Part shown: positions 566 to 16,211 of the stretch, one piece after another
Numbering within the stretch: the first letter of the stretch is position 1
Layout: the number at the start of each line of letters is the position of its first letter
DNA from: a virus
Taxonomy: Duplodnaviria > Heunggongvirae > Uroviricota > Caudoviricetes
Direction: 5' to 3' (one strand)
Virus record (IMG/VR): IMGVR_UViG_2547132281_000005
Length of the DNA stretch: 17,319 nt
Translations under genes and position numbers: made by a program
The notes under the pieces: model-generated
Seen by the model: the letters and a program-made list of their open reading frames with translations, nothing else
What the model was told of the DNA's origin: nothing
Database searches by the model: none

Positions 566-598
566 AAAACCCCGGATGATCACCGGGGTTAATTTTAT
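566..598 (+). terminator. Rho-independent terminator after the Rha gene
   Basis: GC stem CCCCGG (570-575) / CCGGGG (583-588) with 7-nt loop, followed by TTAATTTTAT. Confidence 0.6.
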
Positions 599-684
599 CG
601 AGCGTGATTGCCGCTAATCGCCATCGCTCTGATTGAGCGTAAATCATTCAGGTTATTCAGTTCTTCCTTCTGCTCTCGCTGACG

Positions 685-864
685 TCAATAAATCCCATCA
701 TTGCGATCAACCTCATCCTTAACCATTGATGCGAGCAGTTCTTCCAGTTTCTGCGCTGACAGCTTTACCTGGTGATCTTCAGCATCTTCCCGGGCTATTG
801 TGGTTCGCGCAGTGGCTGATTTTGCTGACATCACCACAGGGGGCAGACGGACCATTGAACCATG
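685..864 (-). CDS. Hypothetical small protein (about 56 aa from ATG at 864)
   Basis: Track ORF 685-966 starts at a TTG inside the repeat hairpin. The internal ATG at 864 (MVRLPPVVMSAKS...) has a GGAGG 10 nt upstream, and another ATG lies at 840. No recognisable family. Confidence 0.2.
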   Translation of the reverse strand, partial: HGSMVRLPPVVMSAKSATARTTIAREDAEDHQVKLSAQKLEELLASMVKDEVDRNDGIY

Positions 865-918
865 GCCTCCGGAACAAATAAGGGCAAAAATAACAACCAC
901 TATCGAAAGCTCACAAAC

Positions 919-1135
919 TAACCGCAGCACGTTCCTGCATACGACGTGTCTGCGGCATAATCCCAATGATTACTCCCTGACAGGATTTGCAGGCCACTCA
1001 ATATCAGGTGCAGTTGATGTATCAACACGATTCAACAATACCCGATATTTATTCCATGCCTCCAGCAACGATCTTTCTTCCTCCGTTGCGATTTCCAGAT
1101 CTACAGCATCCTGCAGTGGCGCAATATACTCACTG
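919..1135. repeat. Direct repeat copy A (tfa 3' end plus downstream hairpin)
   Basis: About 217 bp, roughly 85-90% identical by eye to 1969-2185 (constant offset 1050 bp), same orientation. Contains hairpin 922-955 about 15 nt after the tfa-like stop. Confidence 0.7.
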
Positions 1136-1239
1136 AATTCCTGGATGTAGAACTGTGTGGTGACGGTCTTCCAGCCATTCGGCTCCTGCTGTATCGAAGC
1201 ATACCAGGCTATTTCAATATCGCTATGCTGCGGCAGCAT
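970..1239 (-). CDS. Short chimeric tail fibre assembly (Tfa)-like protein, 89 aa
   Basis: C-terminal 52 aa ([52 protein letters not shown]) differ at only 5 positions from the Tfa C-terminus at 2019-2603. N-terminal 36 aa are unrelated. ATG at 1239 is preceded by AAGGGG with a 4-nt spacer. Confidence 0.5.
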
Positions 1240-1295
1240 TTAACCCCTTGTAATTCATCGCCATAATTGATTTAATTCACAAATAAAACTATAAC

Positions 1296-1964
1296 ATGGT
1301 GAAATCAATGAAAAAAAACACAGATGATGGGGCTAAAATTTACACACCACTTACCCTAAAGCTTTATGACTGGTGGGTTTTGGGAGTATCAAATCGGCTT
1401 GCATGGGGATGTCCTACAAAGGAACACCTTCTTCCACACTTTCTGGAACATGTAGGTAACAACCATCTGGATATTGGTGTTGGAACTGGGTTTTACCTTA
1501 CTCACGTACCTGAGAGTAGTCTGATATCTTTAATGGATTTGAACGAAGCTAGCCTGAACGCGGCATCTACAAGGGCTGGGGAATCAAAAATTAAACATAA
1601 AATTAGCCATGATGTTTTTGAACCTTATCCCGCGGCGTTACATGGTCAATTTGATTCCATTTCCATGTTTTACCTTCTTCACTGCCTGCCTGGAAATATA
1701 TCTACAAAAAGCTGTGTAATACGCAATGCGGCGCAGGCCTTAACTGACGATGGAACTCTATACGGAGCCACAATTCTTGGCGATGGAGTTGTGCACAATA
1801 GCTTCGGTCAAAAACTGATGCGCATTTACAATCAGAAAGGCATCTTTTCAAACACAAAAGATTCCGAAGAAGGCTTAACACATATACTCTCAGAGCATTT
1901 CGAGAATGTTAAAACCAAGGTTCAAGGTACTGTAGTAATGTTTTCCGCTTCAGGGAAAAAATAG
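1296..1964 (+). CDS. Class I SAM-dependent methyltransferase (about 220 aa)
   Basis: Motif I LDIGVGTGFYL, acidic residue after beta-2 (MDLN), and later FDSISMFYLLHCLP and LTDDGTLYGATI blocks typical of the Rossmann-fold methyltransferase layout. Alternative start ATG at 1308 has GGTGA 5 nt upstream. Stop TAG at 1962-1964. Confidence 0.7.
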   Translation: MVKSMKKNTDDGAKIYTPLTLKLYDWWVLGVSNRLAWGCPTKEHLLPHFLEHVGNNHLDIGVGTGFYLTHVPESSLISLMDLNEASLNAASTRAGESKIKHKISHDVFEPYPAALHGQFDSISMFYLLHCLPGNISTKSCVIRNAAQALTDDGTLYGATILGDGVVHNSFGQKLMRIYNQKGIFSNTKDSEEGLTHILSEHFENVKTKVQGTVVMFSASGKK

Positions 1965-1968
1965 CATC

Positions 1969-2185
1969 CAACCGCAGCACGTTCTTGCTTAAGACGAGCT
2001 GCGGCATAATCCCAATGATTACTCCCTGACAGGGTTCGTAGGCCACTCAATATCAGGTGCAGTTGATGTATCAACACGGTTCAGCAACACCCGATACTTT
2101 TTCCAGGCTTCCAGCAATGAGGTTTCTTCCTCCGTTGCAATTTCCAGATCTGCAGCATCCTGAAGCGGCGCAATATGCTCACTGG
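1969..2185. repeat. Direct repeat copy B (tfa 3' end plus downstream hairpin)
   Basis: Partner of 919-1135; contains hairpin 1972-2004 immediately after the convergent stops of the methyltransferase and tfa. Confidence 0.7.
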
Positions 2186-2603
2186 CTACCTGCATCAGGT
2201 TGTTTTTTGTTTCTTCCGCCTCCCGGATCCGGAACAGTTTTTCTGCTTCCGTATCCTTCACCCAGGCTGTGCCGTTCCACTTCTGAAACTCCCCTTCCGG
2301 CGATAACCAGGTAACATTTTCCGGTAACGGACCGAGTTCAGAAATAAATAACTCGTCCCCTGACGCTACGTCATAAACCGTTTTACCCCGATGGTCTTCA
2401 ACGAGATGCCACGATGCCTCATCACTGTTGAAAACAGCCACAAAGCCAGCAGGAATATCTGGTGGTGCAATATCGGTACTGTTTGCTGGCAGACCTGTAT
2501 GAGGCGGAATATATGCGTCACCTTCACCAATAAATTCATTAGTTCCGGCCAGCAGATTATAAATTTTTATGGTCCGTGCTTGTTCACTCATTCTGAATGC
2601 CAT
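2019..2603 (-). CDS. tfa: Tail fibre assembly protein Tfa (194 aa)
   Basis: Same length as lambda Tfa (194 aa) and conserved Tfa C-terminal block. Its ATG (2603-2601) overlaps the stop of the upstream fibre ORF in a TAATG arrangement, as in the lambda stf-tfa pair. Confidence 0.85.
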
Positions 2604-3550
2604 TATGCAAGCCTCACAATATAGTTAAATGCGATGTTTTTGACGGTGTTTTCCGCGTTACCCGCAGCGTTAACGGTGATGGTGTGTCCATGTGAACCAA
2701 TCGCAACGGAGTGCGTATGCGCACCAATACCTACAGTATGTGCATGTGCGCCAGAACTTGCTGCAGTACCAGACAGCGAGTGGGTATGAGCACCTGCTGA
2801 CTGTGTCTGAATACGTTGATAATACGATCTATAGGAAGAAGTCTCCGGGCTTACTTGATACTGTGAATTCTGGACATAAGTGAACCCACCGCCATCATAA
2901 AATGCTAACGCAGAACCGCCGCCTCCTGGCCAACGAATACCATTACCATGAGTATGAACACCGGCAGACCCCGTAGAGCCACTCAGACTGTGCGTATGCG
3001 CCCCGGTGTTATTCGTGGATTTAGTGCCGTAATCAAACGACGATGTGGTTTTCGTCCCCAAATCCGTACTGGATGCGCTGGCGCTGTGGGTGTGCGATTT
3101 AATGCCGTCCTGTTCCTGAGACAATACGGCCCGGCCACTGGCGGGTTTGCCCTTGATTGTCCAGCCGCGCATATCTGGAATAACACCTGAAGGATAGGCA
3201 ATAGCCAGTTTCGGATATGCTGCCTTATCAAACGTCTGCCCCTGCATGATTGCATAACCTGCAGGTGGTGTATCTGATGGCCACGGCAGCGGAACACCTG
3301 GCGGAAACGCTTCAATATTTGCCGAGCCGTCAAATTTTACGCCGTTAATTGTCCTTGCAGTTTGCAATTTGGTTGCTGTGCTTGCATTAGTCGAGGCTAA
3401 GGGCTTTTTTAACCTCGCATCCGCGCCTGCGGTAACACTGAATGAGCCATTCGGCCTGTTCTTCAGTGCATGGGGGGTGCTGGTACCAGTCTGACTTAAA
3501 TGCATGAGAATACCGCTCGTGCGTGTGGGCAAGAACGGTCGAATTATCAT
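2603..3550 (-). CDS. stf: Side tail fibre protein, C-terminal fragment (lambda orf-314-like), N-terminally truncated
   Basis: 315-aa ORF rich in G/S/T/A with repeated GAHTHS / HxH motifs and a [13 protein letters not shown] block typical of Stf C-terminal regions. The frame hits a stop at 3602-3604 just upstream and the ATG at 3550 has no RBS, so the N-terminal shaft portion is missing. Confidence 0.6.
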
Positions 3551-3578
3551 GATTGTAATATTTTGCGTTGCGTGCCAT
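3387..3578 (-). CDS. Hypothetical 63-aa protein overlapping the stf fragment in another frame
   Basis: ATG at 3578 preceded by GGAGA with a 6-nt spacer; sequence is not fibre-like ([23 protein letters not shown]...). Could instead be a chance ORF. Confidence 0.35.
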
Positions 3579-3644
3579 CGGTTTTCTCCGGTGGCACGGT
3601 GTTACTCAGCGGGAGTTCAGCCCCGCGCAAGATTGTAGATGAGT

Positions 3645-3896
3645 TTATTCTTCTGAAAAAGCAGAAAAGCCAGCTTTTATTCCGATCTCTTTCAATGCCT
3701 GTAATGAAGTGACAAACTCACCGTCGCGCAAGATAAATCCGTCCGTCACTCGGGCATCCACAAAATTAATTAACGCAGCCCCATTTTTTTGCAAACACAC
3801 AATGCGGTAATGACTAACAATATTTCCATTTTCAACGCACACAGCATAGAGGCCATCTTCACAAAAAATTTTACGCAGTTCTTCGATGTTCATCAT
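3645..3896 (-). CDS. Hypothetical 83-aa protein
   Basis: Tandem ATG ATG at 3896-3891 preceded by GGAAGGA with a 5-nt spacer. No recognisable family. Confidence 0.5.
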   Translation of the reverse strand: MMNIEELRKIFCEDGLYAVCVENGNIVSHYRIVCLQKNGAALINFVDARVTDGFILRDGEFVTSLQALKEIGIKAGFSAFSEE

Positions 3897-4011
3897 CAGA
3901 ATCCTTCCGGATAATTAGCTCTCCCCTTTAAGGGACCATCCCTCTTATCCCTGCGCGCTACTTAAGTATTTTTGATTCTATTCCGGCACCGTCCAGAACT
4001 TCAAACGCGTT

Positions 4012-4043
4012 GAAAATAAAAACAAAAACCCGCCGAAGCGGGT
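4012..4043 (-). terminator. Rho-independent terminator of the hok transcript
   Basis: On the minus strand: stem ACCCGC / GCGGGT (4028-4043) with 4-nt loop, followed by TTTTTGTTTTTATTTT (complement of 4012-4027). Confidence 0.55.
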
Positions 4044-4112
4044 TAAGTGCGGGTGCGTTGAGGATGCCTGCCACATCAGAGGTGGCGAGGGATTTCTCCC
4101 TCGCCGGGTCTC

Positions 4113-4268
4113 TTACTCCTCAGGTTCGTAAGCTGTGAAGACAGCGACCTCCGTCTGGCCGGTTCGGATTCGTACCTCGCAGAGGTCTTTCCTCGTTACC
4201 AGTGCCGTCACTATGACGGTTAAACAGATGACGATCAGGGCGATTAGCATCGCCTTTTGCTGCTTCAT
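4113..4268 (-). CDS. hok: Hok/Gef family type I toxin (51 aa)
   Basis: MKQQKAMLIALIVICLTVIVTALVTRKDLCEVRIRTGQTEVAVFTAYEPEE closely matches the Hok/Gef family as I recall it. ATG at 4268 preceded by GGAGA; stop TAA at 4113-4115. Confidence 0.85.
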   Translation of the reverse strand: MKQQKAMLIALIVICLTVIVTALVTRKDLCEVRIRTGQTEVAVFTAYEPEE

Positions 4269-4325
4269 AGCCTGCTTCTCCTTGCCTTTCGGCACGTAAG
4301 AGGCTAACCTACGTGTGTAGAGCAT
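4113..4325 (-). CDS. mok: Mok (modulator of killing) reading frame, in-frame N-terminal extension of hok
   Basis: 70-aa ORF sharing the stop and frame with hok, as in chromosomal mokC/hokC. Confidence 0.55.
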   Translation of the reverse strand: MLYTRRLASYVPKGKEKQAMKQQKAMLIALIVICLTVIVTALVTRKDLCEVRIRTGQTEVAVFTAYEPEE

Positions 4326-4370
4326 AGGTATGGCCTCAGATTAATGTTAAGCGTCTTGCCGGACGCGTAA
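4295..4370 (+). ncRNA. sok: Putative Sok-like antisense RNA (position inferred, boundaries approximate)
   Basis: Inferred from hok/sok organisation: the antisense RNA should overlap the mok initiation region. A plus-strand hairpin GCGTC-ttgccg-GACGC lies at 4351-4366 but lacks a clean U-run, so the end is uncertain. Confidence 0.25.
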
Positions 4371-4443
4371 TGTTAACTGGGGCTTTTCTCTATCTGCCTT
4401 TGGTGTTGATGCCCGAGGCAGATAGCCTCAAGCACCCGCAGCA

Positions 4444-4472
4444 ATTCTACTTAACTACCGTTACCTCGCCAA
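4444..4472 (-). promoter_or_regulatory. Candidate sigma-70 promoter for the hok/mok mRNA
   Basis: Minus strand reads TTGGCG (complement of 4467-4472), 17-nt spacer, TAGAAT (complement of 4444-4449). A 9-bp stem 4390-4398 / 4417-4425 sits in the predicted 5' leader. Confidence 0.4.
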
Positions 4473-4479
4473 TATGAAA

Positions 4480-4569
4480 TCAATCAGAAAGGTGATCCAT
4501 AAGAACAACAGCAAGACAATAAATTGCCATTACAGCAGCAATAGCCAGCGCACATTTGAGAACCAGCAC
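4480..4569 (-). CDS. Candidate small hydrophobic peptide (29-30 aa, type I toxin-like)
   Basis: AGGAGG (complement of 4575-4580), 5-nt spacer, GTG at 4569; encodes VLVLKCALAIAAVMAIYCLAVVLMDHLSD, then TGA (4482-4480). The DNA here is TGY-repetitive and open in several frames, so this may be chance. Confidence 0.25.
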   Translation of the reverse strand: MLVLKCALAIAAVMAIYCLAVVLMDHLSD

Positions 4570-4947
4570 CACAACCTCCTGTATTGGACGTACACCAGTC
4601 CTGATAAATATGAGGCTGTCTCGTCAGTGATTCAATACAACTACTGGGTATAGTTTCTATGATTTTGTTCTGTGGAAATGGAAAACAGCAACCAGTCACC
4701 ACCAGCACTTCTTTAAACATGCCAAGTCACACGCAAGCCAACATTATAGTTCCCTTTGAGCGAGCAGATGAAGCTAGCAAAAATATTGATCACTTAGGAT
4801 GCATTACTAACGTTGCTATGTGTTAACGAACAGGGAGTGGGTCATCAGCATAAATATTTATGCAGTAGGTTTCTTTTAGGACTAGATTAATCAAAAACAT
4901 TTAGATAAAATTATAAAATCAAGAAATTGGTGGCAATTAATCTTTAA

Positions 4948-4976
4948 TTGTGCCAGCTGAATTTCGTTATTATAGA
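4948..4976 (+). promoter_or_regulatory. Candidate promoter for the membrane-protein/methyltransferase operon
   Basis: TTGTGC (4948-4953), 17-nt spacer, TATAGA (4971-4976) in an AT-rich region upstream of the GGAGAG SD and ATG at 5011. Confidence 0.3.
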
Positions 4977-5326
4977 AGATTAGCTTTTTTTTGAATGTTT
5001 GGAGAGTAAAATGTTAGAACCACCAAAGAGTTATAATGAAATGTTGCCTATGCTCCATAAGGCGACTTTTATTACTACATTTATATTTTACCTATCATTA
5101 GTCATTTATGGCTACATGCCATTGGTTGGCATTAATGCCAAGTATATCCCCCCCGTTAAAGACTACGAGGAATTTATTAAATGGATATTAACCTTTGGCA
5201 TATTACCAATTGCATCTTCAGTTTTTTGGTCAGTAATTAGTGGAGCTTTAGATCTACATAATAATGTAGCAAAAATTATTGGAATAAGGAAGATGTGGGA
5301 TAGTCATTTAATTATTAAACCATTAG

Positions 5327-6521
<1,195 letters not shown>

Positions 6522-6911
6522 TTAGCAAAAATTGCAGGCGTTACGAGAAAATTAACTACTGATGAATCTCACAAGGTAATGAGTAAACTGTATTACCCAG
6601 AAGTTAAAGAGTTAAAAGACAAACATTACGTTGAACTTTTCTGGAACAAAGTTTATTACTTTTGGGTTTTCTTTGAACATACAGTAATCGCATTTGTTAC
6701 TATTTTAATAATAAGTATCGCCAAATTAACAAATATATTCTCTGTTACTGGCTCTTTAATTAATCTTTGGTTGTGGATTATTTCTCTTGTCGCATTTGAC
6801 TTCCTTATTTTCATAGCATCAGTTAAACCAAGAACAGAAAGCCAAGTAAGACAAATACCTGATAGCAAAATAAAAGAATTCTTTAACAATAACAATATTT
6901 TTTAAACGAGG

Positions 6912-7571
6912 TTGATTTTGAATTACAAAATAAATGGAATAAACATACGTTCAGAAAATGCAGCGAAACCGCACACTATGCCATCTAACTATCTCTGTAA
7001 ACAGATTGAAAGCACTAATAAAAATGGCAATGCCCTTGATTTTGGATGTGGAAAACTTAGATATTCAGAACAATTAGTAAATAAATTTGAAACTGTGACA
7101 TTTTTAGATTCCAGAAGACAACTAGAAAGAGTGCAAATTATCAGAGGTGTACAAACCACGATTCCAGATTACGTGATAAATAACTATAAGAATGCTAATA
7201 TTGTTTCTTATGAAAATATAGATAAAATAACAAATCATTATGATTTCATACTTTGCGCAAACGTGCTTTCCGCAATTCCATGTGAATCCACAATTCACAA
7301 AGTCCTCAGTGCGATTAGAGAATTATTAAAGAGTGATGGTGAAGCACTGATTGTCAATCAATACAAAAGTTCTTATTTCAAGAGGTACGAGAGCGGTATT
7401 AAACATTTGCATGGGTATATATACCAAAACTCTCGTAATGCTTTCTACTATGGTTTATTAGATGTGGATACTGTAAGTAAAATATGCTCAGATAATAATT
7501 TAGAAATAATAAAATCATGGAGCAAAGCAGGTAGTTCATATGTGGTTGTTGGTAAACATATACATATTTAG
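6912..7571 (+). CDS. TehB-like class I SAM-dependent methyltransferase (about 217-219 aa)
   Basis: Motif I ALDFGCGKL, acidic LDSR, YDFILCANVLSAIP and LKSDGEALIV blocks resemble TehB-type methyltransferases. Likely start is TTG 6918 (GAGG 6908-6911, 6-nt spacer) or TTG 6912; begins 7 nt after the membrane-protein stop. Confidence 0.7.
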   Translation: MILNYKINGINIRSENAAKPHTMPSNYLCKQIESTNKNGNALDFGCGKLRYSEQLVNKFETVTFLDSRRQLERVQIIRGVQTTIPDYVINNYKNANIVSYENIDKITNHYDFILCANVLSAIPCESTIHKVLSAIRELLKSDGEALIVNQYKSSYFKRYESGIKHLHGYIYQNSRNAFYYGLLDVDTVSKICSDNNLEIIKSWSKAGSSYVVVGKHIHI

Positions 7572-7885
7572 TTTATTTCAACAAATTATTAGAAAGAGTG
7601 ATTTGCTTGTTAATTATTAGCTCGGCAGTGCCGGATCAACATGACCCTGCCACTTAGGCCATTGCCGGTTTACCTACTTTTGTAAGGTTCAGCATGAAGT
7701 TTTTATATACTCTTCCTAATATCAATAGTGATGCTCGCTTATGTTAGCTGCTTCTTGTACATAGTAGCCTTCTCCGACAGTACTGCAATGAGCGGAGAGT
7801 AAAAGTCGATAAACAATAAGGAGGTTCACAATAAATATTTCTCGGTGAAACTTTCAAAGCATTCTCTGTTTTGCTAAATCGACAA

Positions 7886-8785
7886 TTATAAATCAACAAC
7901 ATTTAGTGTTATATCAATATTATTTAGCCTTGCAATCTCTGATGAATCACTTGCTATTTTAGCTTTTAATTTATCAATATTAATCATATCTTCATGGCTT
8001 ATATAAACCATATCACCTTGGTTAACTTTAGATTTGTTCACTATGGCTTGAATAACAGACAAATCATCCATTACACCTCTCATAAATTTCACCATGCTTT
8101 GATCTTTGAAGTCAGATATCGATTTTGAGCGTTGCTTACGTTGAATTGTTCCTTTTGTAATTACTTCATTAATTTCTTTTAAACCAGTGAGCATATCAGA
8201 CAGACTGCCTTCGCAACTCATCCGATGTTTTATTGCATTGCGATTAATAATATTGAGTATAATTTCGAGTGAATCTTTATCACTCCATGGATGTAATGAT
8301 GTATAATCATGATGGCGTCGAATGGCGTCAATCATATCCTGGACCATATCTTCATCTGCTTTATCGCAAAGTTCATTCACGAAATAGCTGGGGTCGATTA
8401 TTTTACAATAACTTGGAGTTAGGTATCTTGAGGCTTTACAAAAACCAAAAATATATAAAGTAGAGTATTTATCTTTCAGACTCTCTCCTATTTCATTTGT
8501 TTCCTCAAAAGATTCGATAGTTTTTTTAATTTTTGCTGGACTTGCATTCGTAGTAACTTGAACTGCTATCATGTTTTTATTATCAGCTAAATCAATGGCG
8601 GGAAAATTAACTTTAATCTGATTCATGTTTACCAGTTCACCCATTTTCAGCGCGCGAAACATAAAGATGGTCAATGACTCAATTATTCTTTCCATGTCAT
8701 GAAAGCCTGCCTGTTTGCGTTGCGCGATATAAAGCTGGAGTAGTGCAATATCACTCTGTAAGTTTCTAATAAGTGGATCAATCAT
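7886..8785 (-). CDS. Hypothetical 299-aa protein, AT-rich orphan (candidate defence/abortive-infection gene)
   Basis: ATG at 8785 with AGGA upstream; long uninterrupted ORF, convergent with the methyltransferase. No recognisable catalytic motif (no HExxH, no Walker A, no TM segments). Confidence 0.7.
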   Translation of the reverse strand: MIDPLIRNLQSDIALLQLYIAQRKQAGFHDMERIIESLTIFMFRALKMGELVNMNQIKVNFPAIDLADNKNMIAVQVTTNASPAKIKKTIESFEETNEIGESLKDKYSTLYIFGFCKASRYLTPSYCKIIDPSYFVNELCDKADEDMVQDMIDAIRRHHDYTSLHPWSDKDSLEIILNIINRNAIKHRMSCEGSLSDMLTGLKEINEVITKGTIQRKQRSKSISDFKDQSMVKFMRGVMDDLSVIQAIVNKSKVNQGDMVYISHEDMINIDKLKAKIASDSSEIARLNNIDITLNVVDL

Positions 8786-9037
8786 AGCTAATAATCCTTT
8801 TCAATGAAGCTGGAGGTGTGTTTAACTATTAGTTAAATTTCTATTTTTATAGAAACAAGCTTTACAACTTCATCAAAGTTTCTCAAATCCTAATCCACTT
8901 TGCAAATCCACTAACCATGCTGAATGCTTTCTGTTGTTAAACATATCCGCTGCTGGCACCAAGCAGACAAACACACTAACTCTACCCTACTCCACAAAAG
9001 AGCCAATCAATATCTGAACTAATAAACTTTAATCTCA

Positions 9038-9460
9038 TCACTTCAATAAATATCGAGCATTTCCCTGATAGAATGCTAGTATGCGCTGCATAACTTCACT
9101 CTTCCGGCACTCGCGACAGATTATGTTCTGACGCCTGTCGTAGCGACGTATTTCTCCGTCAGGTAATGACCAGATAAGGTCCGGATCAACCGCAGATGGT
9201 TCCTTCAGCTTTGCCCTTGAGAGCTTTTTACGGGCATTTTGCCAGTCCTTACGCGCCTGTTCAGACGGGAATAACCCGTAACCAGAGTTGTATACATCGC
9301 CGCTGGCAACCAGCTCTCTTGCGAGAACGCTCATCAGATATCTTGTCGCACCTGTCTTGACTTCCAGTTGCCGTAACGTCTCACGACCGCTCTGGCGCAC
9401 GAGTTCCACCACCTGCCCTTTAATTTTTTCCCGCTCTTCTTGTGTAAAAACTTTTGCCAC
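9038..9460 (-). CDS. Hypothetical 140-aa protein (possible DNA-binding protein)
   Basis: GTG start at 9460 preceded by AAGGGGG with a 4-nt spacer. N-terminal helical region (ETLRQLEVKTGATRYLMSVLARELV) and basic C-terminus. Confidence 0.55.
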   Translation of the reverse strand: MAKVFTQEEREKIKGQVVELVRQSGRETLRQLEVKTGATRYLMSVLARELVASGDVYNSGYGLFPSEQARKDWQNARKKLSRAKLKEPSAVDPDLIWSLPDGEIRRYDRRQNIICRECRKSEVMQRILAFYQGNARYLLK

Positions 9461-9500
9461 AAGTCCCCCTTAAAATTACCTCATGACCTGAAATCAAAAC

Positions 9501-10520
9501 TTATCCTCTGAAACCAGGCGGAATTTCTGTATCCGGTTCAGAAATATGATTAACACAACGCTGTACAGGTGAACGCCCCAGGCGGATGACCAGTTCGTCC
9601 CATTTTTCGCGGAGCTTTGACGGGCTCATGATGTTTTTTACCCAGAACGGATCCCGCTGTACCCGACCAAACATTTCACAAATTTGTCTGTGGCTTCTGC
9701 CATCCAGCATCCGCATTGTGCGCACATCATTGGCCCAGACAGTCCAGTTAGGCTCTTTTGGTCGCATGATCTCGCCATCATCACTGGCGGCCTGTTCGTA
9801 GAGACCCACGATCCGCCCCCATATCCACTGCGCACACGCCAGATCCTCCTGGCTACCCCACTGGCGTTTTTTCGCACTAAACACAACTGCGCCAGGGTGC
9901 CGGATTAAAAAATCCTGTTCAGCCGTCTGCGGGTCCGGTTGCGAAGCTTCCGGACGAAAAGTGTTTTTATTCTCTGTAGTAATCTCTGTTGTATTCTCTG
10001 TAGGATCATCGGGCCATTTTGACCCGATGACATTGGGTCGTTTTGAACCAATGGAGCGTTTCATTTTGACCTCTTCCATCGTGTCATTTTGACCTGATGG
10101 AGCGGCGCATTTTGAACCGATGGATTCGCTCAATTTGCCATCATCTAAAAGCTCGCTCCCATAGTTAATCGTGTAGAAATTGGTCATATCGCGCTTTGAT
10201 TTATTGAGCTTTTCACAACGCAAGAGCCCCAGCGTTTTCAGACTTGCAAACGCGCGCTTTAACGTTGACTCTGACCAGAATGGGAACTGTTCCAGCCATT
10301 GTTCCGTTGTGTTGTAAATCCAGCGAACACCATCACATTCCATGCCGGAATTGGTATCTCTCAACCAGTAATGCAACTGCTGCAACACAATGGCTTCATT
10401 TAAGCCAATCTTCATCGCAAGCTGTGTGTTTATAACCAGTGGGCGTTCAGCAAAAAGAAGGCTCATAATTCCATCCAGCTTTTTGTTGGTATTGCTGTCG
10501 ATACGCAAGTTTGAAAGCAA
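9501..10520 (-). CDS. Phage replication initiation protein (replisome organiser, O-like) with internal origin iterons
   Basis: N-terminal region (LNEAIVLQQLHYWL...WIYNTTEQWLEQFPFWSESTLKRAFASLKTLGLL) resembles phage replisome-organiser N-domains; repetitive middle encoded by the iterons. Real start may be ATG 10466 (MSLLFAERP...), which shortens the overlap with the upstream gene to 20 nt. Confidence 0.7.
   Translation of the reverse strand: MLSNLRIDSNTNKKLDGIMSLLFAERPLVINTQLAMKIGLNEAIVLQQLHYWLRDTNSGMECDGVRWIYNTTEQWLEQFPFWSESTLKRAFASLKTLGLLRCEKLNKSKRDMTNFYTINYGSELLDDGKLSESIGSKCAAPSGQNDTMEEVKMKRSIGSKRPNVIGSKWPDDPTENTTEITTENKNTFRPEASQPDPQTAEQDFLIRHPGAVVFSAKKRQWGSQEDLACAQWIWGRIVGLYEQAASDDGEIMRPKEPNWTVWANDVRTMRMLDGRSHRQICEMFGRVQRDPFWVKNIMSPSKLREKWDELVIRLGRSPVQRCVNHISEPDTEIPPGFRG
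10015..10123. repeat. Iteron array (candidate replication origin) inside the replication gene
   Basis: Five copies of CATTTTGA(C/A)C-N-GATGG at 10015, 10039, 10062, 10085 and 10108 (23-24 bp spacing; third copy degenerate), preceded by three TCTCTGT(A/T)G repeats at 9971-10004. Confidence 0.6.
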
Positions 10521-10968
10521 TTGCTTTTTCTATAAGTTCGTCAGTTTCACGATCCACTACGGCAGGATCAGCAAAAAGCAGTCCGGACTCCACCACATCG
10601 CCATATTCTTTGTTTAACCCGGCGATCATGTACGTGATGCTTTTTCCGTCACTAATTTCACGATACAACCTGAAATCATTAATCCGGATAGCCTCCATAA
10701 TTGCAGGCACTAGCGCCGTGAACTTTTCACGCTTATCCCTGGTGTCGATAGCCTTCCAGCGTTCGAATATCTTCACTCGATTAACGCCAAGCGCTCGCTG
10801 ATCAACCGCGCCACCTTCATCTGTGACACGCTGAACATCGATGTTCGGGCGCTCTTTCAAAGCCCAGAATGCTTCAGTGATTAATATCGTCGCCTGCTCC
10901 TGTGTCATTCCTGGTCGACATATCCAGGCATCCAGAGCCTCACGAGCCTGTTCAGGAGTGATTTTCAT
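10447..10968 (-). CDS. Hypothetical 173-aa protein in the cII / YdaT position
   Basis: Lies between the Cro-like gene and the replication gene on the same strand and overlaps the Cro-like stop by 17 nt. Family assignment is positional only. Confidence 0.55.
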   Translation of the reverse strand: MKITPEQAREALDAWICRPGMTQEQATILITEAFWALKERPNIDVQRVTDEGGAVDQRALGVNRVKIFERWKAIDTRDKREKFTALVPAIMEAIRINDFRLYREISDGKSITYMIAGLNKEYGDVVESGLLFADPAVVDRETDELIEKAIAFKLAYRQQYQQKAGWNYEPSFC

Positions 10969-11179
10969 TGTTCAACCGCCCCGCCCGCTTCGTCTTACGA
11001 TATTCGTCATAAACCTTGGGATCATACAGAAGCTCGCCGCCAGATGCCTCCTGTAGACGCATCGCGCGACCTTCAGGAACTAGCTCTTGCCATTGAGAAA
11101 CAGCAGATGGGTCAACGCCAGCAGCTTTCGCTACTTTGGCTTTCGTACCGTAAAAATTAATTACGTCTGATTTAAACAT
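10952..11179 (-). CDS. Cro-like / YdaS-like HTH regulator (about 75 aa)
   Basis: ATG at 11179 preceded by GGAGG (complement of 11184-11188) with a 4-nt spacer; HTH segment TKAKVAKAAGVDPSAVSQW; divergent from the repressor gene. Confidence 0.65.
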   Translation of the reverse strand: MFKSDVINFYGTKAKVAKAAGVDPSAVSQWQELVPEGRAMRLQEASGGELLYDPKVYDEYRKTKRAGRLNNENHS

Positions 11180-11191
11180 CGCACCTCCAAT

Positions 11192-11207
11192 ATTGAGTTT
11201 TCTCAAT
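11192..11207. promoter_or_regulatory. Palindromic operator candidate in the divergent repressor/cro promoter region
   Basis: Perfect 16-bp palindrome ATTGAGTTTTCTCAAT; the same TTGAGTTTTCTCA core recurs twice at 11729-11778. Confidence 0.45.
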
Positions 11208-11664
11208 GCTAATCACTCAAGGAATCTCAAGTCAAGGATTATTAAGATATCTAAATATGAACGAGAAAACTTTAGGTCAACGCATTAGAGAAAGACGTAA
11301 GCAGGTAGGCTTAAGTCAAAACGGTTTAAGCAAAGCTGCTGGCGTATCTGGCTCATCAATTTCATTATGGGAAAGTGACCATACAGCCCCGCGCGGGCAA
11401 AATTTGCATCGCCTCGCCGAGGTATTGCAATGTTCACCAACCTGGATACTGTTTGGCGACGAGGACAAAACACCAGCTCCCCCTGTTTCACTCGATAGTA
11501 CCCTAGACTTATCGGAAGATGAGTTAGAGATGCTGCGTTTGTATCGCGCACTTCCTAAATCAGAGCAACAAGCACAACTCAGCGAACTCCGCGCCCGCGT
11601 TGAGAATTTTAATCGCCTGTTCACCGAGCTATTAGAGGCTCGCAAACGCAACAAGCATCAATAA
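11206..11664 (+). CDS. cI/C2-like prophage repressor, N-terminal HTH (XRE family), no S24 peptidase domain
   Basis: From the internal ATG 11257 the protein starts MNEKTLGQRIRERRKQVGLSQNGLSKAAGVSGSSISLWE, like the P22 C2 / RacR-type N-terminus as I recall it. Either 11206 or 11257 may be the start; both lack a strong SD (possibly leaderless). Confidence 0.8.
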   Translation: MLITQGISSQGLLRYLNMNEKTLGQRIRERRKQVGLSQNGLSKAAGVSGSSISLWESDHTAPRGQNLHRLAEVLQCSPTWILFGDEDKTPAPPVSLDSTLDLSEDELEMLRLYRALPKSEQQAQLSELRARVENFNRLFTELLEARKRNKHQ

Positions 11665-11728
11665 TCATCCCTTCACAAAATTTTAAAGCCTTACATTTCA
11701 ATGTATTGGCTTTATCTTGCGCCAACAC

Positions 11729-11780
11729 TTGAGTTTTCTCATCAAAAAACCTTGACGAAAAATAATGAGAAAACTAAATT
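11729..11780 (+). promoter_or_regulatory. Candidate early-left promoter flanked by operator half-sites
   Basis: TTGACG (11752-11757), 17-nt spacer, TAAATT (11775-11780), bracketed by the inverted repeat TTGAGTTTTCTCAT (11729-11742) / ATGAGAAAACT (11765-11775). Confidence 0.4.
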
Positions 11781-11856
11781 ACCTCCATCAACACACCGCA
11801 CGGTGTTCTCCGCAAACAGTTCCGCTACCCCGGCGTTAAGGGGAAATGAGGTCAGC

Positions 11857-12012
11857 ATGGATACTATCGATCTTGGCAACAACGAATCTCTGGTGTACGG
11901 CGTGTTTCCAAACCAGGACGGCACGTTCACCGCAATGACGTATACCAAAAGCAAAACGTTTAAAACCGAAAATGGTGCCCGTCGCTGGCTGGAAAGAAAC
12001 TCAGGTGAGTGA
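11857..12012 (+). CDS. Hypothetical 51-aa protein (YdaF-like position and size)
   Basis: ATG 11857 with GAGG 5 nt upstream; MDTIDLGNNESLVYGVFPNQDGTFTAMTYTKSKTFKTENGARRWLERNSGE; stop TGA 12010-12012. Confidence 0.55.
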   Translation: MDTIDLGNNESLVYGVFPNQDGTFTAMTYTKSKTFKTENGARRWLERNSGE

Positions 12013-12013
12013 T

Positions 12014-12142
12014 ATGGATTTCGACACAATCATGGAAAAGGCTTACGAAGAATACTTCGAAGGCCTTGCCGAAGGCGAAGAAGCTCTCAGCTTCAGTGAG
12101 TTTAAACAGGCGCTTTCCAGCTCGGCAAAATCTAACGGCTGA
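12014..12142 (+). CDS. Hypothetical 42-aa acidic protein (YdaG-like position and size)
   Basis: ATG 12014 two nt after the upstream stop, with AGGTGA 5 nt upstream; MDFDTIMEKAYEEYFEGLAEGEEALSFSEFKQALSSSAKSNG. Not in the ORF track because it is under 60 aa. Confidence 0.4.
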   Translation: MDFDTIMEKAYEEYFEGLAEGEEALSFSEFKQALSSSAKSNG

Positions 12143-12171
12143 TAAGCGAAGCAGCACCGCGAGGAATCAGT

Positions 12172-12390
12172 ATGCAGAAACGAGAACCCGTCATCATCGC
12201 GCCAGACTATACCGATGATGAACTTTATGAGTGGATGCACCAGAAAATTAATGCAGCGCAGGATCTGAAATGGGCCAATGAAGCCAGGGCTAAGCAGGCT
12301 GAAAATCTGTCCGCTCTGGAGCAGGATATCACTAATCTGGAAAAAGCAGCGGCATTAAGCATTGCCAGAATGATTACATACCCGCGTTAA
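12172..12390 (+). CDS. Hypothetical 72-aa protein
   Basis: ATG 12172 with GAGGAA 5 nt upstream; stop TAA 12388-12390. Confidence 0.6.
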   Translation: MQKREPVIIAPDYTDDELYEWMHQKINAAQDLKWANEARAKQAENLSALEQDITNLEKAAALSIARMITYPR

Positions 12391-12393
12391 TAG

Positions 12394-12791
12394 CTAACCA
12401 ACGAAGCTAAGGTTGGTAATTAAGGAGTTCTCCACGGATGAGGTGGAGTGCGTGCGCCGGACACGGGTGAGCATCCGGCACAGACAGTTTACTGAAAGGA
12501 TATTTCCCTGAAAGGTCAGACCATAACGCGAAAGCGCACGGCGAGGTAGCTGGTTCATAGATAGCCTGTCGTTAAATTTTCGTCGACCGTGCGCTTCCGG
12601 TTGTGGCAATCCGCGAAATGGCGCGGCGGTGAGTATGGCGGGGTTATTCCTTCCCCGTTGAGGACACCGGGTTGTCAGGTTGACCATACGCTTAAGTGAC
12701 AACCCCGCTGCAACGCCCTCTGTTATCAATTTTCTGGTGACGTTTGGCGGTATCAGTTTTACTCCGTGACTGCTCTGCCGCCCTTTTTAAA
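12394..12791 (+). ncRNA. GC-rich structured non-coding region (candidate ncRNA or structured leader), strand assumed from the flanking operon
   Basis: No plausible ORF on either strand. Consecutive perfect stems: ACCAAC/GTTGGT (12397-12417), CTCCAC/GTGGAG (12430-12448), GCCGGA/TCCGGC (12456-12479), CGC-GAAA-GCG (12527-12536), GCGCACGG/CCGTGCGC (12534-12594), CCGCG/CGCGG (12611-12626), CGGGG/CCCCG (12639-12657), GGGTTGTCA/TGACAACCC (12669-12705), and GGCGG...CCGCC followed by CTTTTT (12746-12788). Confidence 0.3.
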
Positions 12792-12795
12792 GTGA

Positions 12796-12937
12796 ATTTT
12801 GTGATGCGGTGAATGCGGCTGAGCGCACGCGGAACAGTTAAAACCAAAAACAGTGTTATGGGTGGATTCTCTGTATCCGGCGTTAATTGTTAACTGGTTA
12901 ACGTCACCTGGAAGCACCAGGCACCGCATCACAAAAT
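12796..12937. repeat. Perfect 16-bp inverted repeat pair bracketing about 110 bp
   Basis: ATTTTGTGATGCGGTG (12796-12811) and its exact reverse complement CACCGCATCACAAAAT (12922-12937); interior carries GTTAAC-tg-GTTAAC palindromic sites. Confidence 0.5.
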
Positions 12938-12957
12938 TCATTGTTGAGGACGCGATA

Positions 12958-13146
12958 ATGGAAACGTTATTACCAAACGTTAATACGTCTGAAGGTTGTT
13001 TTGAAATTGGTGTCACTATCAGTAACCCTGTATTTACTGAAGATGCCATTAACAAGAGAAAACACGAACGGGAGCTATTAAATAAAATATGCATTCTTTC
13101 AATGTTGGCCCGTTTACGTCCGATACAAAAAGGATGCTGGCAATGA
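12958..13146 (+). CDS. Hypothetical 62-aa protein
   Basis: ATG 12958 with GAGGA 7 nt upstream; its stop TGA (13144-13146) overlaps the next ATG in an ATGA arrangement. Confidence 0.45.
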   Translation: METLLPNVNTSEGCFEIGVTISNPVFTEDAINKRKHERELLNKICILSMLARLRPIQKGCWQ

Positions 13147-13334
13147 ATACAGCATTTGCACTTGTTCTGACAGTTTTTCTTGTTTCCGGAGAGCCAGTTG
13201 ATATTGCAGTCAGTGTTCACAGGACAATGCAGGAGTGTGTGACTGCAGCAACCGAACAGAAAATTCCCGGTAACTGTTACCCGGTCGATAAAGTTATTCA
13301 CCAGGATAATAACGAAATCCCGGCAGGTCTTTAA
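13143..13334 (+). CDS. Small exported protein candidate (63 aa, N-terminal hydrophobic signal-like segment, two Cys)
   Basis: ATG 13143 with AAAGGA 8 nt upstream; MNTAFALVLTVFLVSGEPVDIAVSVHRTMQECVTAATEQKIPGNCYPVDKVIHQDNNEIPAGL. Confidence 0.5.
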   Translation: MNTAFALVLTVFLVSGEPVDIAVSVHRTMQECVTAATEQKIPGNCYPVDKVIHQDNNEIPAGL

Positions 13335-13426
13335 AACAGTTCCGTAATAAACATCCGATTTCATTCTTATATGCCAGCAATGGCAGGGATTTGTTCACCC
13401 TTAAATCTGTAATGAGGTAAAACAAA

Positions 13427-15898
13427 ATGAGTAAAGTCTTTATTTGCGCCGCCATTCCGGACGAACAGGCAATAAAGGAAGAAGGTGCCGTCGCTGTAGC
13501 CACTGCCATTGAAGCCGGTGATGAACGTCGCGCCCGCGCAAAATTTCACTGGCAATTCCTGGAACATTATCCGGCTGCTCAGGACTGCGCTTATAAATTT
13601 CTTGTTTGCGAGGATAAACCCGGTATACCCCGCCCTGCCCTCGATTCCTGGGATGCTGAATATATGCAGGAAAACCGCTGGGATGAGGCGTCTGCTTCCT
13701 TTGTCCCGGTCGAGACTGAATCCGATCCGATGAACGTCACTTTTGACAACCTAGCCCCTGAAGTACAGAACGCTGTCATGGTTAAGTTCCACACATGTGA
13801 AAAAATCACTGTTGATATGGTGATTAGCGCACAGGAATTGTTGCAGGAAGACATGGCAACATTCGACGGCCATATCGTTGAAGCGTTGATGAAAATGCCA
13901 GAAGTTAACGCTATGTATCCGGAGCTTAAGCTGCATGCCATCGGGTGGGTTAAGCATAAATGTAAGCCTGGTGCCAAATGGCCCGAAATTCAGGCAGAGA
14001 TGCGCATCTGGAAAAAACGTCGCGAAGGTGAACGCAAGGAAGCCGGAAAATACACGTCTGTTGTTGATCTCGCCCGCGCCAGAGTCAATCAACAGCACAC
14101 TGAAAATTCAACAGGAAAAATCAACCCGGTCATTGCTGCCATTCATCGCGAATACAAGCAGACATGGAAAACACTGGATGACGAACTGGCCTACGCTCTC
14201 TGGCCTGGTGATGTGGATGCCGGAAACATTGACGGCAGCATCCATCGCTGGGCAAAAAATGAAGTTATCGACAACGACCGCGAAGACTGGAAGCGTATCT
14301 CGGCATCAATGCGCAAACAGCCTGATGCCCTTCGCTACGACCGCCAGACTATTTTTGGCCTTGTCCGTGAACGTCCGATCGACATTCACAAAGACCCTGT
14401 GGCACTGAACAAATACATTACTGAATACCTGACTACAAAGGGCGTGTTTGAAGATGAAGGAAGAAATCAGAGCGCAACTGATACTCTCTCGTCGCCAGTA
14501 CCAGAAACTGATGCAGTGGAAACGGCAATTCCGGACAACGAAAAAACCGAATGCAAAGTGGAAGTCGAACCATCTGTAGAGCGTGAGGGGCCGTTCTACT
14601 TCCTCTTCACCGACAAGGATGGCGAAAAATACGGTCGCGCAAACAAACTTTCTGGTCTGGATAAGGCGCTGGCTGCCGGGGCAACTGAAATCACGAAAGA
14701 AGAATATTTTGCCCGCAAAAACGGCACATACACAGGTTCACAACAAAATACTGATGCATCTGACACGACCGCACAACCAGACCTGGTAAAAGTTACCGCT
14801 GACGAAGTAAACAAAATTATGCAGGCAGCCAGTATCAGCCAGCCTGACGCTAATAAGTTGCTCGCTGCATCACGTGGTGAATTTGTTGAAGGGATTAGCG
14901 ACCCGAATGATCCGAAATGGGTGAAGGGGATTGAAACCCGCGATTCTGTGCACCAGAACCAGTCAGAAACGGAACAGTACGACCAAAAAGCGGAACAAAA
15001 CAGCCAAAATGCGTTACAAAACGAGCCAGAAACGAAACAACCTGAACCAGTCGTGCAACAGGAAGAGGAAAAAGTTTGTACCGCATGCAATCAGACTGGT
15101 GGTGGTAACTGCCCTGATTGTGGCGCAGTGATGGGTGACGCAACCTACCAGGAGACATTCAACGAAGAAAGCCAGGATGAAGCCCGGGAAAAAGATCCAG
15201 AGGAAATAGAAAATGCCGGACTCCCGAACAAGGAGTGCACCGAAGGCGATCAACATGCCAATGACAATAATGAAATAGGCGAGACAGCAAATCCCTTAAT
15301 TAAGGTGAACAGTCATCGTAAAAGCACATCCACCAGCAGGTTGTGGCACCATCTGATGATTGACCTTGAAACCATGGGAAAAAATCCTGATGCCCCGATT
15401 ATCTCAATAGATGCAATATTTTTCGATCCGCAAACCGGAGATATGGGACCGGAATTTAGTAAGACTATCGATCTGGAAACTGCTGGCGGAGTCATTGATC
15501 GTGACGTCATTAAAAGGTGGCTGAAGCAATCACGTGAAGCGCAGTCTGCCATTATGACCGATGAAATCCCGTTAGATGATGCACTGTTACAATTGCGGGA
15601 ATTTATCGACGAAAACTCCGGTGAATTTTTTGTTCAGGTCTGGGGAAATGGAGCCAACTTCGAAAACACGATTTTGCGCCGTTCATACGAACGGCAGGGG
15701 ATCCCCTGCCCATGGCGTTACTACAACGATCGCGATGTACGCACAATCGTTGAGCTGGGGAAAGCCATAGACTTCGATGCCAGAACGGCTATTCCATTCG
15801 AAGGTGAGCGCCATAATGCACTTGATGACGCCCGTTACCAGGCAAAATACGTTTCAGTTATCTGGCAAAAACTGATCCCGAATCAGGCTGATTTTTAA
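13427..15898 (+). CDS. Large multidomain protein (823 aa) with C-terminal DnaQ/Orn-like DEDDh 3'-5' exonuclease domain
   Basis: ATG 13427 with GAGG upstream. Central acidic/Gln-rich linker and CxxC-x9-CxxC zinc-ribbon-like motif (CTACNQTGGGNCPDCG, about 15076-15123). C-terminal about 185 aa (15341-15895) carry MIDLETMG (Exo I), VWGNGANFENTIL (Exo II-like) and HNALDDARYQAKY (Exo III). Confidence 0.85.
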   Translation: MSKVFICAAIPDEQAIKEEGAVAVATAIEAGDERRARAKFHWQFLEHYPAAQDCAYKFLVCEDKPGIPRPALDSWDAEYMQENRWDEASASFVPVETESDPMNVTFDNLAPEVQNAVMVKFHTCEKITVDMVISAQELLQEDMATFDGHIVEALMKMPEVNAMYPELKLHAIGWVKHKCKPGAKWPEIQAEMRIWKKRREGERKEAGKYTSVVDLARARVNQQHTENSTGKINPVIAAIHREYKQTWKTLDDELAYALWPGDVDAGNIDGSIHRWAKNEVIDNDREDWKRISASMRKQPDALRYDRQTIFGLVRERPIDIHKDPVALNKYITEYLTTKGVFEDEGRNQSATDTLSSPVPETDAVETAIPDNEKTECKVEVEPSVEREGPFYFLFTDKDGEKYGRANKLSGLDKALAAGATEITKEEYFARKNGTYTGSQQNTDASDTTAQPDLVKVTADEVNKIMQAASISQPDANKLLAASRGEFVEGISDPNDPKWVKGIETRDSVHQNQSETEQYDQKAEQNSQNALQNEPETKQPEPVVQQEEEKVCTACNQTGGGNCPDCGAVMGDATYQETFNEESQDEAREKDPEEIENAGLPNKECTEGDQHANDNNEIGETANPLIKVNSHRKSTSTSRLWHHLMIDLETMGKNPDAPIISIDAIFFDPQTGDMGPEFSKTIDLETAGGVIDRDVIKRWLKQSREAQSAIMTDEIPLDDALLQLREFIDENSGEFFVQVWGNGANFENTILRRSYERQGIPCPWRYYNDRDVRTIVELGKAIDFDARTAIPFEGERHNALDDARYQAKYVSVIWQKLIPNQADF

Positions 15899-15962
15899 TG
15901 TTCAACCCCGGTCGTTGCCCACCAGCTATAGTGGCGGCGACCATGATTAGCGAACGACGCTC

Positions 15963-16211
15963 ATGGCAAGACTTATTCTGCTCACTGAGTGGGCAAAAGA
16001 GGAATTCAGTGAACCGGTCCCAACTCCGAGTACGTTAAGTAAATACGCTAAAGCCGGAATGATATTTCCTCTCCCCAAAAAAGTTGGAAGACGCTGGCGA
16101 GTGGATCCGCAAGCTCGCTTTGTCGGAATGGTAAACAAGCCGGAGGTGATCGCCACAGATCACCCTGCTTTGAAGAGGATACTGGAAGATGGCGCGCCCG
16201 CGAAAATATAA
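15963..16211 (+). CDS. xis: Excisionase (Xis)-like protein, 82 aa
   Basis: Small basic protein immediately upstream of and overlapping the integrase start; KYAKAGMIFPLPKKVGRRWRV resembles excisionase-type DNA-binding motifs. Confidence 0.7.
   Translation: MARLILLTEWAKEEFSEPVPTPSTLSKYAKAGMIFPLPKKVGRRWRVDPQARFVGMVNKPEVIATDHPALKRILEDGAPAKI

Follow-up and report, generated by a model that had tools for sequence, protein, structure and literature searches.

A short tfa-like open reading frame beside a ybcY-type methyltransferase cassette in a lambdoid prophage is probably a recombination junction relic

The window, a stretch of 17,319 nucleotides of phage DNA, contains a full-length tail fibre assembly (tfa) gene and a short tfa-like open reading frame (ORF), separated by an oppositely oriented methyltransferase gene (Table 1). 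The short ORF starts with ATG and encodes 89 residues on the minus strand. Its upstream neighbour is the methyltransferase gene and not a fibre gene; the remnant of the side tail fibre gene (stf) lies 1.36 kb upstream, past the full-length tfa. The start of the short ORF is preceded on the minus strand by ...ACAAGGGGTTAAATG, in which AAGGGG, a 4-nt spacer (TTAA) and the ATG follow one another. An earlier note on this DNA had described the ORF, its length and its own Shine-Dalgarno (SD) sequence with this spacing, and all of these are seen in the sequence. AAGGGG pairs with the anti-SD sequence with one G·U wobble, and a spacer of 4 nt is near the lower limit of usual spacings.

Table 1. Features of the methyltransferase cassette and its flanks in the window
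Feature	Position	Strand	Basis or remark
DUF4376-type chaperone C-terminal pseudogene, internal stop	595..873	-	third tfa-like 3' remnant in series
Repeat R2: tfa 3' end (about codons 32-89 of the short ORF) and about 50 nt downstream with hairpin	920..1146	-	
Terminator-like hairpin CCGCAG...CTGCGG 3' of the short ORF	922..955	-	same element 3' of lambda tfa
89-aa short Tfa-like ORF, K-12 tfaX (b0563/ylcE) orthologue	970..1239	-	translation, Pfam, K-12 identity
N-terminal ~34-36 codons of the short ORF, non-Tfa: upstream DNA of the methyltransferase cassette read on the opposite strand	1137..1239	-	
56-bp divergent spacer, promoter-like hexamers facing the methyltransferase	1240..1295	.	
Class I SAM-dependent methyltransferase, ybcY homologue, cassette cargo	1296..1964	+	
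Repeat R1: 3' end of full-length tfa and its hairpin (1972-2004)	1970..2195	-	
Full-length lambda-type Tfa, 194 aa	2019..2603	-	Caudo_TAP profile 1-130/131
Side tail fibre gene, 5'-truncated, 315 codons left	2603..3550	-	cut by ~38-kb prophage-internal deletion

Both tfa segments lie on the minus strand, as direct repeats. R2 and R1 were identical at 200 of 227 positions (88.1%), and the match ran about 50 nt past the stop codons, through the hairpin. The cassette between these two diverged copies of the tfa 3' end and hairpin extends over about 0.85 kb. At one of its ends the methyltransferase stop codon is 6 nt from the R1 hairpin, which therefore lies between the convergent tfa and methyltransferase genes. 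In the divergent spacer, a -35-like hexamer directed toward the methyltransferase (TTAACC) overlaps the SD and ATG that belong to the short ORF on the opposite strand. All loci checked had a divergent spacer of the same length. Immediately before the ATG at 1296 stands TATAAC (1290-1295), a promoter-like -10 hexamer taken from Shimada 2014. The true start of the methyltransferase is probably the ATG at 1308 (MKKNTDD) rather than the one at 1296; homologues in Enterobacter begin at the equivalent MKK/MNK position, and a Citrobacter-like copy of the cassette (L013) begins at MKSMKK. With the DUF4376-type remnant, three tfa-like 3' ends stand in series (2019-2603, 970-1239 and 595-873). A 40-aa deletion variant, present on 19 contigs (P0139), joins codon 16 of the short ORF to the DUF4376 remnant.

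The window as a whole corresponds to a lambdoid prophage at ompW, with an internal deletion of about 38 kb that removed all tail genes. In strain 14EC017, the equivalents of window positions 1 to ~3400 and 3388-17319 sit 38 kb apart. The deletion junction (~3388-3550) brings the 315-codon stf remnant up against the rem/hokD early region. With all tail genes and most of stf lost from the prophage, the window encodes no client fibre in cis. Rfam matches fell in the prophage early region, with sok antitoxin RNA at 4263-4437 (-) beside hokD and DicF RNA at 12732-12783 (+). The early region also carries a second class I SAM-dependent methyltransferase gene (6912-7571, +), which is unrelated to the ybcY type (BLASTP E = 2.9) and is adjoined by a SMEK-domain gene (7886-8785, -).

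The protein encoded by the short ORF has two parts of different origin. Residues 36-89 matched the last 54 residues of the full-length Tfa with 49 identities. The earlier note had called this C-terminal block near-identical; the block is real, and the wording is slightly generous because the repeat is 88.1% identical in DNA. In the alignment with the full-length Tfa, a check that the note had suggested, the protein match starts at residue 36, and the DNA repeat starts at about codon 32 (position 1146). The note's claim of an N-terminus differing from Tfa also held: over the first ~34-36 codons, local and global DNA alignments with the colinear part of tfa, compared with shuffled sequences, gave no significant similarity (P = 0.14-0.65). 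Hidden homology of these codons to tfa was rejected on this ground, and the alignment that appears in an Rfam IS009 match to this region was forced. A search of 5.8 billion proteins with a 40-aa query found no relative of the N-terminal peptide outside the cassette. We therefore also rejected the idea of a parent protein for the N-terminal 36 residues, as the query returned only cassette members.

The Pfam profile Caudo_TAP (PF02413) matched the short ORF over residues 31-86 only, which correspond to profile positions 75-130 of 131 (E = 6e-25), compared with positions 1-130 in the neighbouring 194-aa Tfa. Likewise, the C-terminal part aligned only to residues 123-174 of the 175-residue Mu TfaU. 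The ORF retains the conserved helical domain of the Tfa C-terminus, including the YRV.L.RVD...WP motif, and by both the profile and the TfaU alignment the variable N-terminal (beta-sandwich) fibre-binding domain is absent. None of the NCBIfam profiles matched the short ORF. An AlphaFold2 (AF2) model of the 89-aa protein, built on an alignment of 10 sequences, had a pLDDT of 58.5 and predicted two C-terminal helices, with nothing usable at the N-terminus. Of the short ORF, PGAP calls only the equivalent of 970-1146, and labels it a pseudogene ("tail fiber assembly protein, missing N-terminus"); the DUF4376-type remnant at 595-873 is a second PGAP pseudogene call. Intact copies in other genomes and databases are named "tail fiber assembly protein".

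We compared 131 loci taken from phage records, IMG/VR contigs and genome contigs, which were collected by an 18-nt pattern or by protein look-ups. The block that was always conserved comprised the methyltransferase, the 56-bp spacer and roughly 30 codons from the start of the short ORF. In many loci, similarity to the window stopped within the tfa-homologous segments on both sides. From the conserved block and the places where similarity stops, it follows that the N-terminal ~34-36 codons are part of the methyltransferase cassette and not of tfa. The earlier note had also considered that this part might match non-coding sequence in relatives; instead, the DNA upstream of the methyltransferase always had the same sequence in relatives, with its ATG start. 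We looked to chromosomal methyltransferase homologues as a source of the upstream region and rejected them, since the Enterobacter loci (61-64% amino acid identity) have unrelated upstream DNA. Our search found no reported function for a ybcY-type methyltransferase, although the gene is clearly under purifying selection.

The cassette is common in E. coli. An 833-bp segment (window 1132-1964) was present at 95% identity or more in 3,843 of 5,426 complete E. coli genomes (71%). Single genomes carried as many as four copies, and nine of the places were on plasmids. Its contexts varied: it follows a lambda-type tfa in the window and P2-type H/G genes in two loci (L007 and L008), and it follows P2 gpD in L006, by way of a deletion. 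A shared repeat boundary at the L006 junction was considered and rejected; this junction, a simple deletion, is located about 45 nt upstream of the supposed boundary. In L010 the cassette comes after a tailspike gene, and no tfa gene is called on its left. In the 10-kb stretch of phage ev243 that we examined, the annotation has no full-length tfa, only a 3' remnant to the left of the methyltransferase.

The Citrobacter-like copy (L013, positions 360-994 of IMG/VR UViG_2878904576_000003) is the most diverged one, with about 92% DNA identity, and abuts a 5'-truncated umuD-like gene. In this copy, umuD-like DNA takes the place of a Tfa end after the same ATG, SD and ~35 codons; the N-terminal codons thus accompany the methyltransferase even where the Tfa part is missing. 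The right end of the conserved block falls at about codon 33-37 in both the tfa and the umuD-like contexts. Citrobacter database entries give the first 22-26 residues of the same peptide the name "DNA polymerase V, partial".

By its sequence and gene order, the short ORF is an orthologue of a gene that has already been catalogued, tfaX (b0563, ylcE) of the E. coli K-12 prophage DLP12, and in this sense it is already known. As in the window, DLP12 has a full tfa, an oppositely oriented ybcY methyltransferase and a short tfa in succession (tfaD–ybcY–tfaX–appY–ompT). The 61 residues of K-12 TfaX are all identical to the window ORF (61/61). The DNA has the same 56-bp spacer, SD and ATG, and differs at only two nucleotides up to codon 60. 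After codon 60, unlike in the window, K-12 tfaX switches abruptly to another tfa allele, and a TGG to TGA change at codon 62 ends its product at 61 aa. In contrast, the copy in the window is the uninterrupted 89-aa form ending in ...WPANPVRE. The K-12 ybcY gene is a pseudogene.

Several observations bear on how the two tfa ends came to flank the cassette. Across 76 distinct arrangements, the two tfa 3' copies of one locus were at most about 83% identical, and in the window 88% by local alignment. Because the copies within a locus are diverged, the pair is neither a recent tandem duplication nor homogenised; recent tandem duplication and gene conversion between the tfa ends were both rejected, as the within-locus copies were always diverged. 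Among short-ORF alleles, the C-terminus took at least seven forms, for example WPQQPVS, each of them a proper Tfa end. These varied ends, together with the K-12 breakpoint after codon 60, indicate repeated crossovers inside the conserved C-domain coding sequence. Recombination of this kind has been observed experimentally: phage lambda gains Rac and Qin DNA across stf-tfa homology by Red-beta/RecA recombination (PMC3945230). We infer that the repeat has acted as a homology arm that carries the methyltransferase between phages.

Intactness differed strongly between the two genes of the cassette. One set of loci was anchored on the SD/ATG pattern and a second set on the methyltransferase, and a short ORF of 86-89 aa was counted as intact. 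In the pattern-anchored set, the short ORF was intact in 78 loci and disrupted in 46, and the methyltransferase, which is 2.5-fold longer, was intact in 113 and disrupted in 11. In the methyltransferase-anchored set, the short ORF was intact in 54 of 70 loci. The short ORF was thus broken in 23-37% of sampled copies, compared with an adjacent methyltransferase that was intact in about 91%. We distinguished at least 12 lesion types, including nonsense and frameshift changes, an in-frame deletion and junction truncations. Apart from the in-frame deletion, the disrupted products were 11, 28, 32, 55, 61, 66, 68, 82, 101, 106, 108 and 110 aa long. The protein collection records 998 contigs with the 82-aa form and 694 with the 55-aa form. 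Of the other forms, the 61-aa one is that of phage PhiR68_2, and the 101-aa junction form is that of phage ev243. A propagation host is listed for PhiR68_2 and for the PhiR relatives of ev243; the ev243 record itself lists none.

Polymorphism was counted in 59 aligned haplotypes, after misaligned ones had been filtered out. The N-terminal 36 codons contained 40 distinct variants, 14 of them synonymous, an excess with P = 0.01 when unweighted and P = 0.08 at the observed transition/transversion ratio. Two nonsense variants were present where 2.2-2.8 were expected, meaning that nonsense changes had not been purged. The methyltransferase behaved differently: 52 of its 105 variants were synonymous (P about 1e-6) and none was nonsense, as expected of a gene under purifying selection. 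Variant density in the N-terminal codons (0.37 per nt) was about equal to that at synonymous sites of the methyltransferase (0.35). The SD and ATG were invariant in all 70 methyltransferase-anchored copies, which are very closely related to one another. This conservation may be explained by the overlap with the TTAACC hexamer of the methyltransferase.

Weak purifying selection in the frame of the short ORF, present or past, is possible judging from two further comparisons. Against the most diverged copy (L013), codons 1-33 gave a dN/dS of about 0.18, from 8.7 synonymous and 8.3 non-synonymous differences. The C-terminal changes that are specific to the short copy, relative to lambda and to the full tfa, were mostly synonymous (about 9 against 4, a hand count in one alignment). 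This C-terminal excess could equally date from the time the sequence spent inside a full-length tfa.

The next question is whether the short ORF could be expressed, and as what. No sigma-70-like promoter was found upstream of it on its own strand. In K-12, genomic SELEX placed an RpoD-holoenzyme site, together with H-NS, in the spacer between the divergent ybcY and tfaX (Shimada 2014, PMC3946193), and a ylcE/tfaX transcript is reported to be induced 2.55-fold in mixed biofilm (PMC3646849). In an intact prophage, antiterminated late transcription could cover the short ORF; such read-through could reach it because it lies downstream of tfa on the late-operon strand. The variable N-domain of Tfa is described as binding the fibre and the conserved C-domain as acting in assembly or multimerisation (PMC7882524, PMC9608196), where the two papers differ slightly on the fibre-binding domain and both cite North 2019. 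One suggestion of the earlier note, an expressed alternative chaperone, is not borne out by these results: the product lacks the fibre-binding N-domain, 23-37% of copies are disrupted, and the N-terminal codons are without significant purifying selection.

Compared with lambda Tfa (orf-194) and Mu TfaU, the short ORF shares about 54 C-terminal residues, the two-helix region and the ...YRVLLNRVD...WP motif. It differs from them in lacking the N-terminal fibre-binding domain, in its unrelated first 36 residues, and in having no fibre gene directly before it. Phage morons, in the concept of Hendrix and Juhala, are units with a promoter, gene and terminator of their own that have inserted between conserved genes of a phage. 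The ybcY unit resembles a moron in several respects: it has promoter-like hexamers and the reported RpoD/H-NS SELEX site, abuts a hairpin and is oriented against the late operon. It is also an extra gene absent from lambda, where the tfa stop and hairpin are directly followed by the ea47 region. Unlike a typical moron, the unit has on each side a diverged copy of the neighbouring gene's 3' end, the two in direct orientation, and this arrangement creates a chimeric ORF.

The presence of two tfa-type sequences close together downstream of a fibre gene is also reminiscent of the invertible segments of Mu (G/Gin), P1 (C/Cin), e14 (P/Pin) and p15B (Min). In contrast to those segments, the tfa copies of the window are direct and not inverted, and no second fibre C-terminus accompanies the short copy. 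No serine invertase was found in the annotation of the stretches of the closest genome that match the window. PhiR68_2 has a pin gene between tfa and the cassette, not flanking the cassette. The earlier note's other suggestion, a fossil of tail-fibre switching rather than simple debris, was therefore right in one part. The ORF appears to be a widely conserved recombination junction product at the fibre/chaperone module, and not a fossil of Gin/Pin-type switching, because the tfa segments are direct and no invertase is annotated in the window-matching stretches.

Our preferred reading, to which we assign a probability of roughly 0.7, is that recombination at a hotspot of tail-fibre exchange left the short ORF as a junction relic: it is the right-hand tfa 3' repeat, without its head, next to a methyltransferase moron. 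The left repeat copy ends the intact tfa, and the C-domain DNA would be the crossover site. By homologous recombination at this DNA, between two phages or between a phage and a prophage, the methyltransferase moron would be moved between tail modules. Through its fusion to the upstream DNA of the cassette, the right repeat copy has an ATG, the SD-like AAGGGG and 34-36 foreign codons in frame. The inferred recombination would repeatedly replace the short ORF's 3' end by that of another tfa allele. If the short product is made, for example by Q-antiterminated late read-through, it would consist of the two-helix C-terminal assembly or multimerisation domain only, and would be dispensable.

A functional protein is one alternative. 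A translated C-domain-only product might assist or compete with the full Tfa in trimerisation of the side tail fibre. Consistent with this, most copies (63-77%) are intact at 86-89 aa, several of them with proper alternative Tfa ends, and the start signals are conserved; the retained domain is the one said to mediate assembly or multimerisation (PMC7882524, PMC9608196). The position downstream of tfa in the orientation of the late operon, the weak synonymous excess and the reported K-12 transcript (PMC3646849) also fit. However, the fibre-binding domain is missing, the remaining copies are disrupted, including those of ev243, PhiR68_2 and K-12, and nonsense variants are unpurged. The short ORF is also found by tailspike or umuD-like genes with no fibre client nearby, it has no sigma-70-like promoter on its own strand, and its AF2 confidence is low (58.5). 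We consider such a role unlikely on balance. A more specific proposal is that the 89-aa protein, made by late read-through or from a cryptic promoter, is a minimal generic chaperone or a dominant-negative decoy. As a decoy, it could let the prophage sabotage the fibre assembly of related superinfecting phages, and the truncations would then be lineage-specific losses. We regard this proposal as very improbable.

Two other origins for the region were weighed. The N-terminal ~36 codons might be the start of a once-real small gene, divergent from the methyltransferase in the source genome, which was later truncated and joined by illegitimate recombination to a tfa 3' end, or to umuD-like DNA in the Citrobacter-like copies. 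The comparison of codons 1-33 with L013 (dN/dS about 0.18, third-position changes in the middle) would suit such a history, as would the same ATG and SD in both fusion contexts and a block end near codon 33-37 in both. Against this, no longer protein containing the peptide turned up among the 5.8 billion proteins, the chromosomal Enterobacter homologues of the methyltransferase have unrelated upstream DNA, and the polymorphism signal within the family loses significance when transition bias is taken into account. A small ancestral gene is therefore a doubtful explanation of the N-terminal codons. The region might instead act as an RNA and not through a protein, as an sRNA like Rfam IS009 or an antisense or terminator element. 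The IS009 model (RF02111) matched the 3' part of the full tfa at 2062-2260 (-) with 225 bits, and the short copy at 1013-1216 (-) with 112.5 bits, just below the gathering score of 117. However, in K-12 tfaD as in the window, what the model matches is tfa coding sequence, and the 5' third of the model aligned only weakly to the short copy; we give an RNA role hardly any credence. Judged by where its matches fall, the Rfam "sRNA" family IS009 coincides with tfa coding DNA.

The recombination junction relic that we favour has little importance beyond annotation hygiene, as K-12 already has a catalogued gene fragment of which the ORF is one allele. Proof of an action of the short product on fibre assembly would bear on whether the Tfa C-domain is active alone. 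The modestly useful point lies in the anatomy of the cassette, which suggests that conserved chaperone C-domain DNA can serve as a homology arm. Such an arm may move cargo and shuffle tail-fibre modules between lambda-like and P2-like phages.
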